From an uncultured Candidatus Saccharibacteria bacterium (GTDB lineage Bacteria; Patescibacteriota; WWE3; CAZQFB01), in contig CAZQFB010000004.1 in NCBI GenBank assembly GCA_964592525.1, positions 1,195 to 65,194 of the forward strand: 64,000 nt of DNA, in the 5' to 3' direction. This document shows, in pieces, positions 40,758 to 49,344 of this stretch. Under the pieces are notes generated by a model that saw nothing but the letters and a program-made list of their open reading frames with translations, was not told the origin of the DNA and searched no databases. Positions within the stretch are counted from its first letter, which is position 1. Each line of letters opens with the position of its first letter. The position numbers and the translations under genes are program-made.

Positions 40758-40829
40758 GCGCCCGTAGCTCAGTGGTAGAGCACGACTCTTATAAAGTCGG
40801 GGTCCCTGGTTCGATCCCAGGTGGGCGCA
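40758..40829 (+). tRNA. tRNA-Ile (anticodon UAU)
   Basis: Manual cloverleaf. Acceptor GCGCCCG/TGGGCGC, D-arm GCTC-AGTGGTA-GAGC, anticodon stem CGACT/AGTCG with loop CTTATAA (anticodon TAT), T-arm CCTGG-TTCGATC-CCAGG, discriminator A. Confidence 0.8.
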
Positions 40830-40917
40830 CAGTATAGCGGGCAGTATAAAAGTTGAGAGCGATAATTTAATTTTCACACCAGAGTACTTTAAGCAAGTAA
40901 CTCTCTAGCCTCTGGAG

Positions 40918-43035
40918 GTGATTTCCACGAGTACTAATATTTGGTATGATAGTTATATGGCGTCGCCAGATATAGCTGCCCCAAAACTAACCAGTGATAC
41001 CAACGAAAAATTGGGTTTTCAAGAAAGAAAGCCCCCCTTAAAAATTGCTTCTTCTGCTTTACTGTTTATGTTGCTGCTTTTGATAGGTATTACTTATGTT
41101 ATTTACCAAAATGCAGACAAACCCGAAATTAAAGATCCTTCCTCCAAAGGTAGTAAGGTTAAGGTTGGTGAAAAATTTACGCTGCAACAATTTGCCAGTG
41201 AAGATGAGTACAAAGAATATCTTAAATCTTACGAGAATCAAAGAAATGCTCAAGATGGTTATGGCGTGCCTTTAATGAAGCAAACGGCTCCTTCCGTTAA
41301 CAGTGCGGTGCCTGTTCCTAGCACCACAGGAGCGTTAGAAGATTCTTCTCTTGGCGGTGGGGGAGGTCCTGGGCGAGTTTCGGAAACCAACGTCCAAGTG
41401 CTTGGTATTGATGAACCAGACATTGTCAAAACTGATGGGGAAAATATATTTCTTTCCAGTGAGTATTATCTATATAATTATGATCTTGGTCGGAAATATG
41501 AGGGGGGTTATGAGATTAACCCGGCAGAGGGTTATTCCCGAGAAAAAACCCAAATAATTAAAGCATTTCCTCCGGAAGCTTTGTCTAAAATTACTGATAT
41601 TGAAACGGCGGGGGAATTGTTATTAAGCCAAGACACCCTACTCGTTTTTTCTGGGGTAAATCTTTTAGCTTTTGATGTTTCTAATCCACAAGAACCACAA
41701 AAACAGTGGCAATTAAATTTTGAAGAAAGCCAAGAGATTGTAACTTCAAGATTATTTAACGATAAGTTGTATTTGGTGGCTCGTAAATTTGTCTCTTCTT
41801 ATGATCCGTGCCCTATCCCCTTGCTTGAAGGTGCAGAGGCTCTCAATATTTCTTGTACCGATATTTATTATCCCGATGTTACAACTGCTGTTTCTGACAG
41901 TACTTATACTGTGTTACAGGTAGATATAGCTACGGGAAAGGTCAAACAAAAAGTGTCTTTTGTGGGTAATGGCTATGATTCAGTTGTTTACATGTCTCCA
42001 CAGGCTTTTTATATCACCTATAACATGATTGATTCTTATAATGAAGTTACTTTAGACTTTTACGCTACAAAGCTAAACGATTTAATTCCGGCTGAATTGG
42101 TGAAACGTATTCAAGAGATTAAGGGGCTAAACATTAGTGCCACTGCCAAGATGGTGGAGGTGAATTATGAATTAAACAATTATCGTAATTCTCTTTCAGC
42201 TGATAGTAGTTTAGAGTTTGAAAATAACCTTACGAACCGTTTAGTTGATTACCTAAAAGAGCGGGTTCGAGATCTAGTGAGATCTGGTATTGTGCGCGTG
42301 ACTATAGAAGACTTTAAGGTAACTGCTTCGGTTATTGTACCCGGTTCGCCTCTCAATCAGTTTTCACTTGATGAATACGACGGCTATTTACGTTATGCCA
42401 CTAGTGCTAATGCTTGGAGCTTTGGTTCGGAAAATAGTACCAATGATGTTTACATTTTAGATCAGACCTTAAAAGTGGTCGGTCAGGTACAGGATTTGGG
42501 GTTAAGCGAAAGTATTTATTCGGTGCGTTTTATTAAGGAGAGAGGCTATGTAGTTACCTACCGTCAGATCGATCCTTTTTATGTGTTGGATTTATCTAAT
42601 CCCCAAAACCCACAACTTAAGGGAGAATTGAAAATACCTGGTTATTCTTCTTATCTTCATCCACTTGGCCAGGAGCGGATTTTAGGTATTGGTGAAGAGG
42701 GCAGGAATGTAAAAGTGTCTTTATTTAATGTTACGAACGCTTCTGAACCGCTTGAGGTAAGTAAATATGCTTTGGATGAGTATTGGAGTGAAGTATCCCA
42801 AACGCACCATGCCTTCTTGTTGGATGAGGAAAAAGAGATTTTCTTTATTCCCGGAAGTAAGGGTGGTTATATATTCACTTACGCCAAAGATAACTTATCG
42901 CTAGTGAAAGCGGTGAGTGCGTCTGGAGTAAGACGGGCTTTATATCTAGATGACTACTTATACCTTGTGGGGGATAGGGAAATTACGATTTGGGATGAGA
43001 ATACTTGGGATAAAGTAAACGAACTCACTTTGTAA
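40918..43035 (+). CDS. secreted beta-propeller domain protein (705 aa) with N-terminal membrane anchor
   Basis: N-terminal TM (ALLFMLLLLIGITYVIY). Repeated strand-rich motifs (VVTYRQIDPFYVLDLSNPQNPQ, KVSLFNVTNASEP, LYLVGDREITIWD) resemble the 'beta-propeller domain' family of secreted proteins. Confidence 0.55.
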   Translation: MISTSTNIWYDSYMASPDIAAPKLTSDTNEKLGFQERKPPLKIASSALLFMLLLLIGITYVIYQNADKPEIKDPSSKGSKVKVGEKFTLQQFASEDEYKEYLKSYENQRNAQDGYGVPLMKQTAPSVNSAVPVPSTTGALEDSSLGGGGGPGRVSETNVQVLGIDEPDIVKTDGENIFLSSEYYLYNYDLGRKYEGGYEINPAEGYSREKTQIIKAFPPEALSKITDIETAGELLLSQDTLLVFSGVNLLAFDVSNPQEPQKQWQLNFEESQEIVTSRLFNDKLYLVARKFVSSYDPCPIPLLEGAEALNISCTDIYYPDVTTAVSDSTYTVLQVDIATGKVKQKVSFVGNGYDSVVYMSPQAFYITYNMIDSYNEVTLDFYATKLNDLIPAELVKRIQEIKGLNISATAKMVEVNYELNNYRNSLSADSSLEFENNLTNRLVDYLKERVRDLVRSGIVRVTIEDFKVTASVIVPGSPLNQFSLDEYDGYLRYATSANAWSFGSENSTNDVYILDQTLKVVGQVQDLGLSESIYSVRFIKERGYVVTYRQIDPFYVLDLSNPQNPQLKGELKIPGYSSYLHPLGQERILGIGEEGRNVKVSLFNVTNASEPLEVSKYALDEYWSEVSQTHHAFLLDEEKEIFFIPGSKGGYIFTYAKDNLSLVKAVSASGVRRALYLDDYLYLVGDREITIWDENTWDKVNELTL

Positions 43036-43109: not shown

Positions 43110-43358
43110 ATGGAACTGCCCCCCGAAAAACGAGCTGAACTGATCAACTTTGTTAATGAGGCACGAACTGCCAAAAAGAAAGATAAAGAAATTCGCCAAT
43201 TATTGCTAAATGCTGGTTGGGTAGACGAGGTGATCATGCCTGTTTTAATTGAGACCAGGCCAAAATCAAGGATTTCGCCGGCGTCATTAACGGTATTTTT
43301 ATTGGCGGTAGTGTCTTTTACGGTTACGGGTATAATCATTTACCTAGCCCTGCGGTAA
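43110..43358 (+). CDS. hypothetical small membrane protein (82 aa)
   Basis: Charged N-terminus and a single C-terminal TM (LTVFLLAVVSFTVTGIIIYLAL). Weak support. Confidence 0.3.
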   Translation: MELPPEKRAELINFVNEARTAKKKDKEIRQLLLNAGWVDEVIMPVLIETRPKSRISPASLTVFLLAVVSFTVTGIIIYLALR

Positions 43359-43520
43359 ACTATGCCCTTTTGCTTGGGTTAGTAATTAATCGCTTTTTTG
43401 GATATTTTTAGGTTCTATACGCTGTTTATTACCATAGAGGTTTAAAAGCTCCTTTGGCTGGAAGCGCTTTATTTTATTGGGTTAGTGGTATACTGTACTT
43501 GGGCCTTTTTACTTGTGGTG

Positions 43521-43680
43521 TGGGGGTTTGTAGCTAAGTTGGTCAAGTCGCCCGAGGTACCTTGGGCTCATAGGTGTGTATCGTACCCCTTACACCTGTC
43601 CTTTATAATTAGGGCCCGCAGCTCACTTGGTAGACCTGCCCGAAGTGCCTTGGGCTCATAGGTAAGTGGTATCCTCGCAT
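43521..43680 (+). repeat. two tandem degenerate tRNA-like units (D-arm-like GTAGCTAAGTTGGTCAAGTC / GCAGCTCACTTGGTAGACCT, each followed by GCCCGA(G/A)GT(A/G)CCTTGGGCTCATAGG)
   Basis: Direct repeat of ~90 nt immediately upstream of tRNA-Ala. Resembles tRNA 5' halves (GTAGCTCAGTGGTAGAGC) but could not be folded into complete cloverleafs. Confidence 0.4.
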
Positions 43681-43752
43681 GGGGCTGTAGCTCAGTGGTA
43701 GAGCGTTCCGTTCGCAATGGAAAGGTCGGGGGTTCAACTCCCCCCAGCTCCA
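43681..43752 (+). tRNA. tRNA-Ala (anticodon CGC)
   Basis: Acceptor GGGGCTG/CAGCTCC with G3:U70 Ala identity pair. Anticodon stem TTCCG/TGGAA with loop TTCGCAA. T-arm GGGGG-TTCAACT-CCCCC. Discriminator A. Confidence 0.85.
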
Positions 43753-43824
43753 CGTGTACTTCGAGTTCCCTGCCTGCCGGCAGGCAGGGATTCTCGGTGA
43801 GTCCACATATAGGCAGGCGGGGCG

Positions 43825-43871
43825 CAACATTCGCATTGTTGAGGTCAGGAGTTCGATCCTCCTCGGGTCCA
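43825..43871 (+). repeat. orphan tRNA 3'-half fragment (Ala-like anticodon arm CAACA-TTCGCAT-TGTTG, T-arm AGGAG-TTCGATC-CTCCT, acceptor CGGGTCC-A)
   Basis: Canonical anticodon arm, T-arm and acceptor 3' strand, but no matching 5' acceptor or D-arm upstream. Lies between tRNA-Ala and the integrase gene. Preceded by the perfect 22-bp palindrome CCCTGCCTGCCGGCAGGCAGGG (43768..43789). Confidence 0.5.
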
Positions 43872-44050
43872 CACTGGTACTGGGCTGGTTGTTAATTTCA
43901 CAGTAAGGCAAGTGGGATGCAATATTAGTATGTTTGCAGTTAGGAATTTAACAGCAACGCTTTTTTCTTAAAGTAGCTCTTGCTTATATTATGGAAGACC
44001 GCACTTTTTGGAAGTTTGGGGAGGTTGTTATTTTCTACCCGTAGAATTTT

Positions 44051-44923
44051 TTAAAGCTCGTCAAGATCGACTTTTTCGTCTTCAATTTTGTCAATATATT
44101 GGAGATATTTTTCCGTAGTGGCTAATCTTTTATGTCCGGCTAATTTGGACACGACCACTAAACTGGTTCCCTTTTTCAGGTGATGGGCAATAAAGGTATG
44201 TCGTAAATCATTTACTTTAGCCCTTTCAATCCCCGCTAAACGGAAATAACGATCAATGGAGGTGCGGATGTTGCGCACTAATAAAGGATTACCAGTTTTC
44301 GTGACAAATAAAGCGGGATGGTTAGTGGTGGTACGCACTTCTAAATATTCACTGACAGCTTCTTGAGCAGCCCTGTTAAGTGGTATTTCTCGCCCCTCAC
44401 GGTTGTGTCCTCCAGGTACGGATACTGTCCCCGTAGCTTCCGCAGCTCCAAAATTGACATGACCGACTTCTAACTGGGCGAGTTCTCCGATGCGTACTCC
44501 GGTTTGTAGTAGTAACTCTACTACCGCTGAAGTGCGCTTATCATGACGACAAGCATCCCTTAAAGCCCGATACTCTAGCCGACTTAAAATCCGAGGTGGT
44601 TTAACGTCAAATTTAGGATGAGCAACTAAAGTGGCTGGATCCTCATTAATGTAACCACTGTTTTTTAAAAACTTGAAAAATGTTTTAGTGGAGTTGGTTT
44701 TTCGTGAGATACTTTTATTAGTAAACCCGCGTTGACGAAGAGAGTCCATAAAGGCGTTAATATCATCTTTAGTGACCTCTTTAGCTGTAACTTTACCATG
44801 TTTATTGAGAAACTCTATAAGTTGCTCAATATCTTTGCCATAGGCAACCACAGTCGCTTGAGAACGATTTTTATCTTCTAGATCTTGTATAAATTTTTGT
44901 CGCGCATCTAATAATTGGGTCAT
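44051..44923 (-). CDS. tyrosine recombinase, XerC/XerD family (site-specific integrase)
   Basis: N-terminal SAM-like core-binding domain. Catalytic region with conserved R...HxxR...Y (LRHTFIAHHL..., LAGHKRLATTEKYLQY). Confidence 0.8.
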   Translation of the reverse strand: MTQLLDARQKFIQDLEDKNRSQATVVAYGKDIEQLIEFLNKHGKVTAKEVTKDDINAFMDSLRQRGFTNKSISRKTNSTKTFFKFLKNSGYINEDPATLVAHPKFDVKPPRILSRLEYRALRDACRHDKRTSAVVELLLQTGVRIGELAQLEVGHVNFGAAEATGTVSVPGGHNREGREIPLNRAAQEAVSEYLEVRTTTNHPALFVTKTGNPLLVRNIRTSIDRYFRLAGIERAKVNDLRHTFIAHHLKKGTSLVVVSKLAGHKRLATTEKYLQYIDKIEDEKVDLDEL

Positions 44924-45494: not shown

Positions 45495-45568
45495 GCCTGG
45501 GTAGCTCAGTTGGTTAGAGCACCGGACTCATAAACCGGAGATCGAGGGTTCGATCCCCTCCCCAGGTA
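45495..45568 (+). tRNA. tRNA-Met elongator or tRNA-Ile2 (anticodon CAT)
   Basis: TAGCTCAGTTGGTTAGAGC D-arm nearly identical to E. coli elongator tRNA-Met. Anticodon loop CTCATAA. T-arm GAGGG-TTCGATC-CCCTC. Acceptor GCCTGGG/CCCAGGT (G1:U72 wobble) and an A31:A39 mismatch lower confidence. Confidence 0.65.
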
Positions 45569-45755
45569 CGATCTTGACCTAAACACTTAATGGGTTTTGG
45601 TTATGGAGTAAAAAATTTTACTGCTTATACCTATTTATCCAGTCTGCTTGGGTTATGCCCCAAGTGTTTATAGACCGAGTTTTATTTATCGTAACCAGCT
45701 TTTAAGACTTGTCACTATGGTTTGCTCGTGTTAACCTTCTTACGGATTTAACTGC

Positions 45756-45828
45756 CGCCGGCGAGAGGAGCGGCTACCTCGTCAGGCTCATAACCTGAAG
45801 TTGCCCGGTTCGACTCCGGGGCCGGCAA
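45756..45828 (+). tRNA. initiator tRNA-fMet (anticodon CAT)
   Basis: C1:A72 mismatch (CGCCGGC/GCCGGCA). A11:U24 in D-stem (GAGG/CCTC). Anticodon stem TCAGG/CCTGA with loop CTCATAA. Close overall similarity to E. coli tRNA-fMet. Followed by CC. Confidence 0.8.
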
Positions 45829-46154
45829 CCTACTGTTGGTTGCTTTTTTAAACAGTTACTTAAGATATACCCCTTATGCTGTTGGTGGTTAGTTTTGCTT
45901 AAATGCTATTGACAGGGAATTTGTTTAGCTGTCATAGCCTCAATAGTAACGCTTGACGCATTTGGGTTAACCGAATATGTCTTTAGGGGATTGTCTGTGT
46001 GCTGCCAAAAACTTTTGCTCTTAGTATGTAACAGTGACTTGGGGGAGTTCATGACCATTATGGTAGTGTTGTTATTCGCTTAATATTAAATGCCTTTGGT
46101 CAGTAGACCTTTGCTAAGACTTGTTTTGTTGATTATAATTCCCCAGCATATCTT

Positions 46155-48164: not shown

Positions 48165-48180
48165 AAGTTAGTAGGTTCTA

Positions 48181-48294
48181 GGTATAAGGTATTAGTTTGA
48201 ATACCCTTTTTTTCGTAAATTCATTGAGCACTTGTCATATACAGAAAAGCAAAGGCCCGGTATGCAAGTGGGCATTTGCTTGCCTTACCGGGCT
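48181..48294 (+). repeat. ~115-bp repeat, copy 1 (terminator hairpin + conserved spacer + long GC hairpin GCCCGGTA..TACCGGGC)
   Basis: Direct repeat of copy 2 at 48838..48956 with a few mismatches. Homology extends a further ~20 nt upstream, into the last codons of ftsH. Confidence 0.6.
48188..48213 (+). terminator. intrinsic terminator after ftsH: GGTATT-agtttg-AATACC followed by CTTTTTTT
   Basis: Hairpin plus U-run 24 nt after the ftsH stop. Forms the start of repeat copy 1. Confidence 0.5.
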
Positions 48295-48837
48295 TTGGAT
48301 CATTAGTAATGATCGTTGAGCTGGACTAGGATCCAGAAGACCACTCCTCCGGAAAAGAATATTCCTGGCAGGATTGAAGCTGGTATCTCTGTTGTGTTAC
48401 AAGATACCGTGATCATGACGGATATTGCTCCAACCAACACACTGGCGAAGACTAGATCCCAATGGCTTTTGAGGGTGCTTTTGAGCCTGACCCAACAGCT
48501 ACCCCTCTCCAACCTGGGCTCTTCACAGTGAGTGTATCCCATTTTCACTTTATCCTCTCTTTATCTCCAACCAGGCAATGTTTTAGTGGGTGAAGCAAAG
48601 GTCTTGTTTATCTCTTAAGTAAACATCTGCCGGAACCAGGCCTTGAGCAGAAGACAGAAGTACCTCCAACGCTTGTAGTTGGTGAGCGGTTCACCACCGC
48701 CATCAGTGTAGGCAGTGTTTCCCATGGCGATTACCTTTCTGTTAACGGTGCGGTTAATGGCTGGATTGTAGCATGGATGCTCGGTGACTGCGAAATCTTG
48801 TGGGCTAGTTGATTAGTGAACAGAAGAACGGGTTTGA

Positions 48838-48956
48838 GGTATTAGGTATTAGTTTGAATACCCTTTTTCTTACATTAATTAATCATTGAGCAAATTACAT
48901 TTTCAAAAAAGCAAAGGCCCGGTGTGCAAGTGGGCATTTGCTTGCCTTACCGGGCT
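48838..48956 (+). repeat. ~115-bp repeat, copy 2
   Basis: GGTATTAGGTATTAGTTTGAATACCCTTTTT...AAAGCAAAGGCCCGGTGTGCAAGTGGGCATTTGCTTGCCTTACCGGGCT is near-identical to copy 1. Confidence 0.6.
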
Positions 48957-49344
48957 GAACGTTTACTCACCTTCTCTATACTTTATGCGGTCACGAGGGG
49001 GGGTTATTTTATCCCTAGATCTTCCCTCCAGACCCTCCAGTACGTCTCGAAAGCCCCCGCCGTTGCGTGTCTCATGCAATCTGGTTTACCACAGCAAGCC
49101 ATAGAAGTACCCCCTGACGGAAGCCTGGGGTCGTTCTGGGGTCCGCGGGCACAAGCCTTCAGGGTTGCTTTCCCCCCGCAATATCTACATGGGACATTAT
49201 CTTCATAATCAGCAGGAGCCTCGAACCAGAATGAGTGTACCGCTTTGGGTACCTCAATCCCCATCACCTTCATTTGTCTTTCCCTTCATTGGTTTCTCGC
49301 GGGTGGTTGTGCGAAATAATACCACATCTTGTTACAATTTGATT

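Follow-up and report, generated by a model that had tools for sequence, protein, structure and literature searches.

A tRNA-Ala gene split around nested tRNA-Ala sequences in a patescibacterial genome

Introduction

What history is recorded where pieces of tRNA genes surround an intact one? This question is raised by positions 43521-44923 of a 64-kb stretch of DNA from an uncultured Candidatus Saccharibacteria bacterium (contig CAZQFB010000004.1; 64,000 nucleotides, nt). This stretch, hereafter the window, is the portion of the genome that was visible to the analysis. An earlier note had seen an intact tRNA-Ala there, flanked by tRNA-like repeats and an orphan tRNA 3' half close to a tyrosine recombinase gene, and had read them as the footprint of an integration hotspot. 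We found that the supposed orphan belongs to a tRNA-Ala gene (A) that is split around other tRNA-Ala sequences: the probable remnant of a second split gene (B) and, innermost, the intact gene (C).

Archaea and a few eukaryotes have tRNA genes that are disrupted at sites other than the anticodon loop. For bacteria, the familiar disruptions of tRNA genes are, to our knowledge, limited to group I introns and integrase scars. Our literature search returned no report of a tRNA gene nested in a broken tRNA that itself lies within another broken tRNA.

Results

A tRNA-Ala gene is split around an intact one

The intact tRNA-Ala(CGC) reported by the earlier note, tRNA C, was called by both ARAGORN and Rfam at 43681-43753 on the plus strand, and its match to the Rfam tRNA model (RF00005) reached 71.1 bits over the full length (43681-43752; gathering threshold, 29 bits). 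The 3' half was confirmed as well. It spans 43822-43871 and comprises an anticodon arm with CGC, a T-arm, and the 3' strand of an acceptor stem; searched alone from 43822, it matched the Rfam tRNA model as a 5'-truncated sequence with 31.4 bits (E = 1.7e-5; model positions 23-71), above the gathering score of 29 bits. The note had assigned it no 5' partner; however, that partner lies 187 nt upstream, beyond C, at 43612-43634. This segment, GGGCCCGCAGCTCACTTGGTAGA, makes up the first 23 nt of the second of the two upstream repeats (unit 2) and is by itself too short for the Rfam model.

We found that the acceptor strands of the two pieces pair at all seven positions (43612 side with 43865-43871; GGGCCCG/CGGGTCC), including G3:U70, and that A73 is present. 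In the D-stem, GCTC pairs with GA and GC across the break. When 43612-43634 was joined to 43822-43871, ARAGORN called a tRNA-Ala(CGC). We also scanned the last 25 nt of the 3' piece in public metagenome and genome contigs, which returned mostly unrelated Alphaproteobacteria. This 3' end is identical in 168 intact tRNA-Ala genes of public contigs. All 150 full-length genes sharing it begin with GGGCC, 148 of them with GGGCCCGTAGCTCA, while 6 of the 150 begin with GGGCCCGTAGCTCACTTGGTAGAGCGC, which equals the 5' piece of A except for the replacement of T8 by C (identity, 22/23). Position 8 is T in 150/150 comparable genes and C in A. Because the halves pair, are called as one tRNA by ARAGORN, and have cognate 5' ends, we conclude from the sequence that they are the two halves of one cognate tRNA-Ala(CGC) gene, and that an insert of 187 nt separates positions 23 and 24 of this gene.

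The boundaries of this composite insertion were set by intact A-type tRNAs together with the start of the truncated Rfam match. In three related public contigs (L003, L001, and L241; loci in public contigs are denoted by such numbers throughout), the orthologous genes are intact and lack the insertion. A group I intron core (RF00028) had no match in Rfam at E<=10 within 43300-44100; a search of the same kind detected such a core in viral locus L220 at 86 bits.

The insertion holds a probable second interrupted tRNA-Ala

Two further tRNA-like pieces flank C inside the insertion. Their acceptor strands are fully complementary (7/7 pairs with 43798-43804; GGGCTCA/TGAGTCC), including G3:U70, and this stem is a single compensatory pair away from that of the intact tRNA-Ala(CGC) of L241 (GGGCTCG/CGAGTCC). 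The 3' piece is interrupted in its T-loop by a 20-nt palindrome, P. Taking P out gave a canonical T-arm (TCGAG TTCGATT CTCGG), with the same T-loop as in L001, L003, and L241. C occupies the place of the anticodon arm, and the 3' piece forms a direct repeat with the 3' end of A. Since removal of P restores a T-arm and a complementary acceptor strand is found upstream of C, we conclude that B is also split and is probably the remnant of a second split tRNA-Ala.

The pieces thus stand in the order A5'-B5'-C-B3'-A3'. Folding of the region gave the corresponding nested pairing as the structure of minimum energy (z = -2.8 compared with shuffled sequences), and so did cofolding of the two flanks without C. 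As read from the sequence, A, B, and C each carry the alanine identity set of G3:U70 and A73. An independent Logan assembly, made with a second assembler, reproduced 43359-43873 base for base. We consider the anatomy of the locus secure. C is most likely the working gene and presumably matures in the usual way, through RNase P and 3' processing.

No tRNA fragments were detected in the window other than those at this locus. The promoter and terminator scan of the region gave nothing useful; a TATAAT at 43604-43609 sits too near the first base of A to serve it. A search for a transfer-messenger RNA (tmRNA) in the region returned weak Rfam matches only (14-15 bits compared with thresholds of 47-70).

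Palindrome halves bound the insertion, and its left junction has a decayed copy

Both ends of the insertion resemble the arms of a P variant found in viral locus L189, which reads CCTGCCTGAC followed by GGCAGGCGGG (Table 1). In the minimum-energy fold, the left end CCTGCC pairs with GGCAGG at 43812-43817. Moreover, GGCAGGCGGGG at 43812-43822 is identical in 10 of 11 positions to GGCAGGCAGGG at 43779-43789, that is, to the right arm of the palindrome at P (the right half of P plus the next base). The earlier note had described that palindrome as perfect and 22 bp long. It is indeed perfect but measures 24 nt, with arms at 43767-43778 and 43779-43790, and is unique in the window.

The two tandem upstream units of the note were likewise borne out. 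Units 1 and 2 lie 88 nt apart, share a 44-nt core of 80% identity, and each open with a tRNA-like acceptor and the 5' part of a D-arm. The identity is 24/26 in the hairpin core and ~65% in the tRNA-like part. Their 25-nt hairpin motif occurs at these two places only in the window, with 0 occurrences expected, and the unit hairpin motif GCCCGANNNNCCTTGGGCTCATAGGT had 0 matches in metagenome and viral contigs. Unit 1 is a decayed copy of the 5' part of A, the hairpin, and the 5' part of B. Alignment of the upstream region of L241 to units 1 and 2 revealed no homology.

Two other roles for the units were considered. As an alternative 5' half of A, unit 1 formed no acceptor stem with the 3' piece upon cofolding. 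Their reading as intron-containing tRNAs, an outcome that the note had named as speaking against integration, failed under covariance models.

Table 1. Positions of the tRNA pieces, palindromes, and neighboring recombinase gene in the window.
Feature	Position	Strand	Description
Unit 1	43524..43611	+	tRNA-like 5' part GGGTTTGTAGCTAAGTTGGTCAA, hairpin GCCCGAGGTACCTTGGGC, TCATAGGT; decayed copy of the left junction
tRNA A, 5' piece	43612..43634	+	GGGCCCG acceptor, C8 A9, GCTC D-stem 5' strand, ACTTGGTA D-loop, G22 A23
Composite insertion, 187 nt	43635..43821	+	Interrupts A between positions 23 and 24 (3' strand of the D-stem)
Left arm of P-variant palindrome	43635..43644	+	CCTGCCCGAA; matches the left arm of the L189 variant at 8/10 positions
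tRNA B, 5' piece (probable)	43652..43674	+	GGGCTCA TA GGTAAGTGGTATCC; degenerate D-arm, D-loop-like AGTGGTA
tRNA C	43681..43753	+	Acceptor GGGGCTG/CAGCTCC; ARAGORN and Rfam
tRNA B, 3' piece (probable)	43761..43805	+	TCGAG, T-loop TTC(P)GATT, CTCGG, TGAGTCC, A73
Palindrome P	43769..43788	.	CCTGCCTGCCGGCAGGCAGG, 20 nt; between C56 and G57 of the T-loop of B
Right arm of P-variant palindrome	43812..43821	+	GGCAGGCGGG; same sequence as the right arm of the L189 variant
tRNA A, 3' piece	43822..43871	+	G24 C25 G26, CAACA TTCGCAT TGTTG, AGGTC, AGGAG TTCGATC CTCCT, CGGGTCC, A73
Xer-type tyrosine recombinase	44051..44923	-	Pfam Phage_integrase and SAM-like N domain; neighbor, outside the structure

P recurs in relatives and in phage contigs

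Exact copies of P were found in two relatives, L003 and L184. In L003, P interrupts the D-arm of a tRNA-Met between positions 21 and 22 (GCCTGGGTAGCTCAGTTGGTCA, P, GAG), while in L184 it lies downstream of DivIC. In each case P occupies positions 4-23, and both Logan contigs stop 3 nt beyond it. The P-bearing tRNA-Met of L003 (1-60, minus strand) is of the elongator type.

Among IMG/VR contigs, P was present in 35 stretches (L189-L223) at 39 distinct sites, with G+C contents of 38-68%, and these contigs encode tailed-phage genes. Control palindromes, either matched in composition or made by turning P inside out, had 0 matches each in the viral contigs. We found P within the variable loop of tRNA-Met in L213 and L190, the former being called as a tRNA whether P was kept or removed, and in a tRNA D-arm, again between positions 21 and 22, in L220. 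Several of the contigs hold multiple copies, with many P variants co-occurring. A disruption of genes by P was considered and dropped; the sites in low-GC viral contigs are intergenic. Together, these results establish P as a real dispersed element that recurs also inside other tRNA sequences.

Two of the viral contigs carry further repeats. In L222 (3935-4124), the half-palindrome GGCAGGCAGG is repeated 10 times with 21-nt spacing. In L220 (490-1420), a tRNA 5' exon occurs twice: the first copy contains P within the D-arm and precedes a GIY-YIG gene (553-819), and the second (~823-858) is followed by an open reading frame (ORF) that by eye resembles an HNH endonuclease and by a group I intron core at 1182-1416 (86 bits).

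When P and its flanks were compared by BLAST with GenBank phages and PLSDB plasmids, no exact copy and only near-chance partial matches turned up, and the literature search returned no mention of the P sequence. The idea that P targets hairpin loops in general was dropped, as the complementarity of its flanks equaled that of controls. We also compared P with the dif sites of Xer recombinases, single chromosomal sites in which two recombinase-binding arms surround a spacer of 6-8 bp. P lies 262 nt from the xer stop codon and can be read as 7-bp arms around GCCGGC; it is, however, multicopy in phage contigs, sits at differing places in relatives, and is absent from L241. The 3' end of C, when searched in viral contigs, matched only the 3' ends of tmRNA genes at prophage borders.

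The neighboring recombinase is a conserved chromosomal Xer

The XerC/XerD-family gene that the earlier note had placed near the 3' half has the expected domains, and its stop codon is 179 nt from the 3' piece of A. The best NCBIfam matches of the protein are XerC, XerA, and XerD, all under the equivalog cut-offs. It has 7099 relatives at E<=1e-20 and ~60% identity across Microgenomatia, the nearest named ones belonging to Woykebacteria and Daviesbacteria (~60% identity). The gene divergently adjoins DivIC in L003, L004, L005, L184, L185, L186, L187, L188, and L241, and this pairing holds in all 8 loci of relatives where that flank is present. Past DivIC, relatives have tRNA-Met genes and, where the locus extends, FtsH. 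A search for related loci by Xer in genome contigs found none. The recombinase is a conserved, housekeeping Xer of the chromosome and not the integrase of a mobile element, and nothing ties it to the split-tRNA structure. The genes that the note had called accessory-looking, up to 45.4 kb, are Xer and DivIC, both conserved in relatives.

The tRNA-Ala is linked to an 82-aa gene in a variable stretch

In L003 (Xer 78% identical), a gene for an 82-aa protein is followed by an intact GGGCCCG/CGGGTCC tRNA-Ala(CGC) and, after 18 nt, by the xer stop codon, in the same orientation as in the window. L001 (Xer 79%) has the same A-type tRNA-Ala next to the 82-aa gene, intact but inverted, with an adjoining SET-domain gene. 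In the 59-kb contig L241 (FtsH 69% identical), an intact tRNA-Ala(CGC) again follows the 82-aa gene and is two genes away from Xer. No tRNA-Ala lies beside Xer in L002, L004, and L007. These gene orders indicate that the tRNA-Ala is linked to the 82-aa gene, which has two detectable homologs only, and that its closeness to Xer is incidental.

The segment between the 82-aa gene with its tRNA-Ala and Xer differs in every relative examined, and the 3' flank of Xer is different in every lineage. In a loose sense, these comparisons support a scarred tRNA locus in a rearrangement-prone stretch.

The Logan contig that matches the window up to 43873 (L006; 2391-2412) continues with GAATATTATCGGAAAAAGAAGG, which is found nowhere in the window. 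The Logan contig with Xer (L005) starts at 43968, and 43874-43967 is in neither. The divergence of L006 suggests a second context for the tRNA end or a strain variant.

The window belongs to a Microgenomatia-like patescibacterial genome; among its genes are a split transketolase, RpiB, FtsH, DivIC, Fpg, and a 5'-3' exonuclease. Other tRNA genes of the window (40758-40830, 45495-45569, and 45756-45830) switch strand among relatives, while the neighboring protein genes keep their order and orientation (comparison with L001, L003, L004, L185, L187, and L241). The tRNA-Ile(TAT) is flipped in the window compared to L001, L003, and L241; the tRNA-Met genes are on the opposite strand relative to DivIC in L241 and L004; and the two tRNA-Met genes stand in a different order in the window than in L003. 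The gene at 45756-45830 is a second tRNA-Met(CAT) according to ARAGORN, falls below the Rfam gathering score in a whole-window scan, and has an odd-looking D-arm region.

A gene for a 705-aa beta-propeller protein (40918-43035) lies between the tRNA-Ile and the 82-aa gene. Because it is missing at that position in L001, L003, and L241, it is another lineage-specific insertion in this stretch. Finally, ~1 kb between FtsH and the 5'-3' exonuclease gene (48165-49165) contains only short overlapping ORFs on both strands, and Rfam gave no match there at E<=0.1; a decayed gene or an undescribed RNA may lie in it.

Discussion

With moderate confidence, we favor a history of nested insertions into tRNA-Ala, in which C works and A, B, and unit 1 would be nonfunctional relics. 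A would be the resident tRNA-Ala(CGC) gene, whose normal place is just downstream of the conserved 82-aa gene. It would have been interrupted between D-arm positions 23 and 24 by the 187-nt composite insertion, with the two halves of a P-type palindrome (CCTGCC... on the left, ...GGCAGGCGGG on the right) as its bounds. B, inside this insertion, would have been broken in turn, by P in its T-loop and by C in place of its anticodon arm, and unit 1 would be an older, decayed copy of the left junction comprising the 5' part of A, the hairpin, and the 5' part of B. Each resident copy of tRNA-Ala may have been disabled by the DNA that brought its replacement, and P-type palindromes may mark, or perhaps mediate, the points of insertion. 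We read A, B, and unit 1 as relics because the arrangement is absent from all relatives and redundant with C and because A has C8 in place of T8; the odd base is a sign of a relic alongside the lack of conservation.

Several observations weigh against this history. The nested arrangement is known from one locus. A is almost undecayed: all its stems pair, its loops are canonical, and one base only is odd. In contrast, unit 1, which should postdate the insertion because it contains the same junction, differs from unit 2 by 20-35%. A pristine A next to a younger but diverged unit 1 is better explained by selection or gene conversion than by a relic that died long ago; the pattern points to selection, to gene conversion from other tRNA-Ala genes, or to a more complex history. 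The 5' piece of B on its own shows weak similarity to tRNA 5' ends (score 21 compared to a null 95% value of 24). As for P, flanking repeats of at least 7 nt occurred at 3 of 42 sites, all three in tandem-repeat tracts, and the sites showed no insertion-site consensus or conserved flank. Among the most widely shared protein clusters of the P-bearing phage loci, no common mobilizing enzyme appeared; those checked were a portal, a capsid protein, and a tail-tube protein. Since no enzyme, target duplication, or site consensus was found for P, "insertion" is used here as a description and not as a mechanism.

A history free of mobile elements could draw on the same pieces. Tandem or acquired copies of tRNA-Ala would have been scrambled by recombination, with P as a bystander repeat. 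Short conserved tRNA segments and palindromes would have offered microhomology, be it for template switching, for gene conversion, or for homology-facilitated illegitimate recombination involving DNA from related strains. At the orthologous site, relatives have A-type as well as B-type acceptors as alleles, which suggests exchange of DNA among relatives, and tRNA genes vary in orientation and order among relatives while protein genes stay. The exact divergence of a Logan contig where the 3' piece of A ends is in line with scrambling, as is the failure to find a transposase, target duplication, or consensus site for P. However, simple crossovers between tRNA copies would yield hybrids and not the strict nesting of A5'-B5'-C-B3'-A3'. 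Moreover, P-variant arms bound the insertion and an exact P sits cleanly in a T-loop, neither of which is predicted for a bystander. Overall, we consider scrambling unlikely.

We hold it to be quite improbable that A is a functional interrupted tRNA. C would be released by RNase P and 3' processing, and the flanks, held together by the acceptor of A, the CCTGCC/GGCAGG helix, and the helix of B, would act as a paired two-piece tRNA or be ligated. The near-pristine halves of A are what such a gene should have, with G3:U70, A73, canonical anticodon and T-loops, and G18 G19, and cofolding of the flanks gives the acceptor, anticodon arm, and T-arm of A as the minimum-energy structure. P also resides in other tRNAs at places where an extra arm might be tolerated (D-arm position 21/22 in L003, variable loop in L213). 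Yet, every relative lacks the arrangement and has ordinary intact genes instead, C offers the same anticodon, C8 replaces a near-universal U8, and the break falls within a D-stem strand. The junctions have neither a bulge-helix-bulge, by inspection, nor a group I core in Rfam, and we know of no bacterial enzyme that joins such tRNA halves.

Archaeal disrupted tRNA genes are among the systems closest to the locus and include the split tRNA genes of Nanoarchaeum, the tri-split genes of Caldivirga, and the noncanonical introns of Thermoproteales (PMC10714607). As in A, the tRNA body is broken outside the anticodon loop, and the flanks of the break can base-pair and so hold the halves close. In contrast to them, the host here is a bacterium (FtsH, DivIC, Fpg, and Xer), the intervening sequence of A holds a whole tRNA, and the arrangement is not conserved in relatives. 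At the junctions of A, inspection revealed no bulge-helix-bulge: the 6-bp CCTGCC/GGCAGG helix adjoins the D-stem, where a 4-nt bulge in a single strand takes the place of two 3-nt bulges 4 bp apart. Group I introns in the tRNA anticodon loops of bacteria and phages, which come with homing endonuclease genes, likewise interrupt bacterial tRNA genes, and the duplicated tRNA 5' exon, GIY-YIG gene, and group I intron of L220 resemble the duplicated 5' units of the present locus. Here, however, the break is in the D-arm, with no group I core in Rfam and no endonuclease gene. Two-piece (permuted) tmRNA, which accepts alanine and consists of two base-paired RNA pieces, is an analogy for a functional split only; the gene order at our locus is not permuted.

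A broader proposal would make P-type palindromes a small mobile element or recombination site of Patescibacteria and diverse phages that lands in tRNA loops and is able to carry payloads. Some interrupted tRNAs would then be functional, with an extra arm or reassembling halves, and A would represent a bacterial split tRNA that matures as a side effect of processing the nested tRNA. We regard this combination as improbable. P can be compared with REP/BIME repeats and with the palindromic elements of Rickettsia. REP/BIME repeats go with RAYT (HUH) transposases and a conserved flanking tetranucleotide, while the Rickettsia elements sit inside genes. Like these families, P is short and GC-rich, multicopy in some contigs, mostly intergenic, diversified, and sometimes located in RNA genes. 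Unlike them, its 20-mer is identical across contigs of 38-68% G+C and can bracket a payload; inspection of its sites and of the most widely shared protein clusters yielded neither a GTAG-type flank nor a target duplication nor an associated transposase.

Could a tRNA-targeting tyrosine integrase, encoded by the adjacent gene, have gained and lost elements and left duplicated partial tRNAs as att sites? This mechanism, proposed by the earlier note, is largely refuted, and we judge it very unlikely. Its appeal lies in partial tRNA pieces by an intact tRNA, a variable region, and a nearby tyrosine recombinase gene, the setting of tRNA-gene att sites of phages and genomic islands; the 3' flank of Xer varies among relatives, and a Logan contig changes sequence exactly at the tRNA 3' end. 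True att repeats, however, are near-identical copies of the tRNA 3' part that start at the crossover and stand on either side of an element. The fragments at the present locus do not repeat the 3' end of C (local score 34 compared to 146 for self, with all stems differing), and halves of a different tRNA allele, 5' and 3' pieces cognate, are nested around the intact gene. The 3' piece of A starts in the D-stem and has its partner on the other side of C, as expected of a split gene and not of an att core. There are no element genes between the pieces, and C and the 3' piece of A are only 68 nt apart. The recombinase is the housekeeping Xer linked to DivIC, an outcome that the note itself had listed as refuting, and the tRNA-Ala of L241 keeps its linkage with the 82-aa gene at two genes from Xer. 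Genuine att-type orphans in proteobacterial loci (L045, L051, L077, L087, L107, and L115) look different: their first bases lie in the anticodon loop and are preceded by element DNA, and the one in L115 comes after the apparent end of an integrase gene.

Least probable of all, with a very slight chance of being right, is a chimeric join or artificial palindrome in the metagenome-assembled genome (MAG). In its favor, two Logan contigs of relatives end 3 nt after P, those of the same organism depart from the MAG beyond 43873 and do not cover 43874-43967, and BLAST found no exact P in GenBank phages and PLSDB plasmids. Against it, a second assembler matches 43359-43873 base for base, five independent sequences have P between the contiguous halves of a tRNA loop, P variants are diversified within P-bearing contigs, and control palindromes had 0 matches.

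If the pieces are relics, as in the history of nested insertions that we favor, the locus records the in-place replacement of an essential tRNA gene in a reduced genome. Gene finders miss such tRNA pieces entirely. P is the more general lead, being identical in unrelated phage contigs and in these bacteria and lying repeatedly inside tRNA sequences. Should the split gene work after all, it would represent a new route of tRNA maturation in bacteria.

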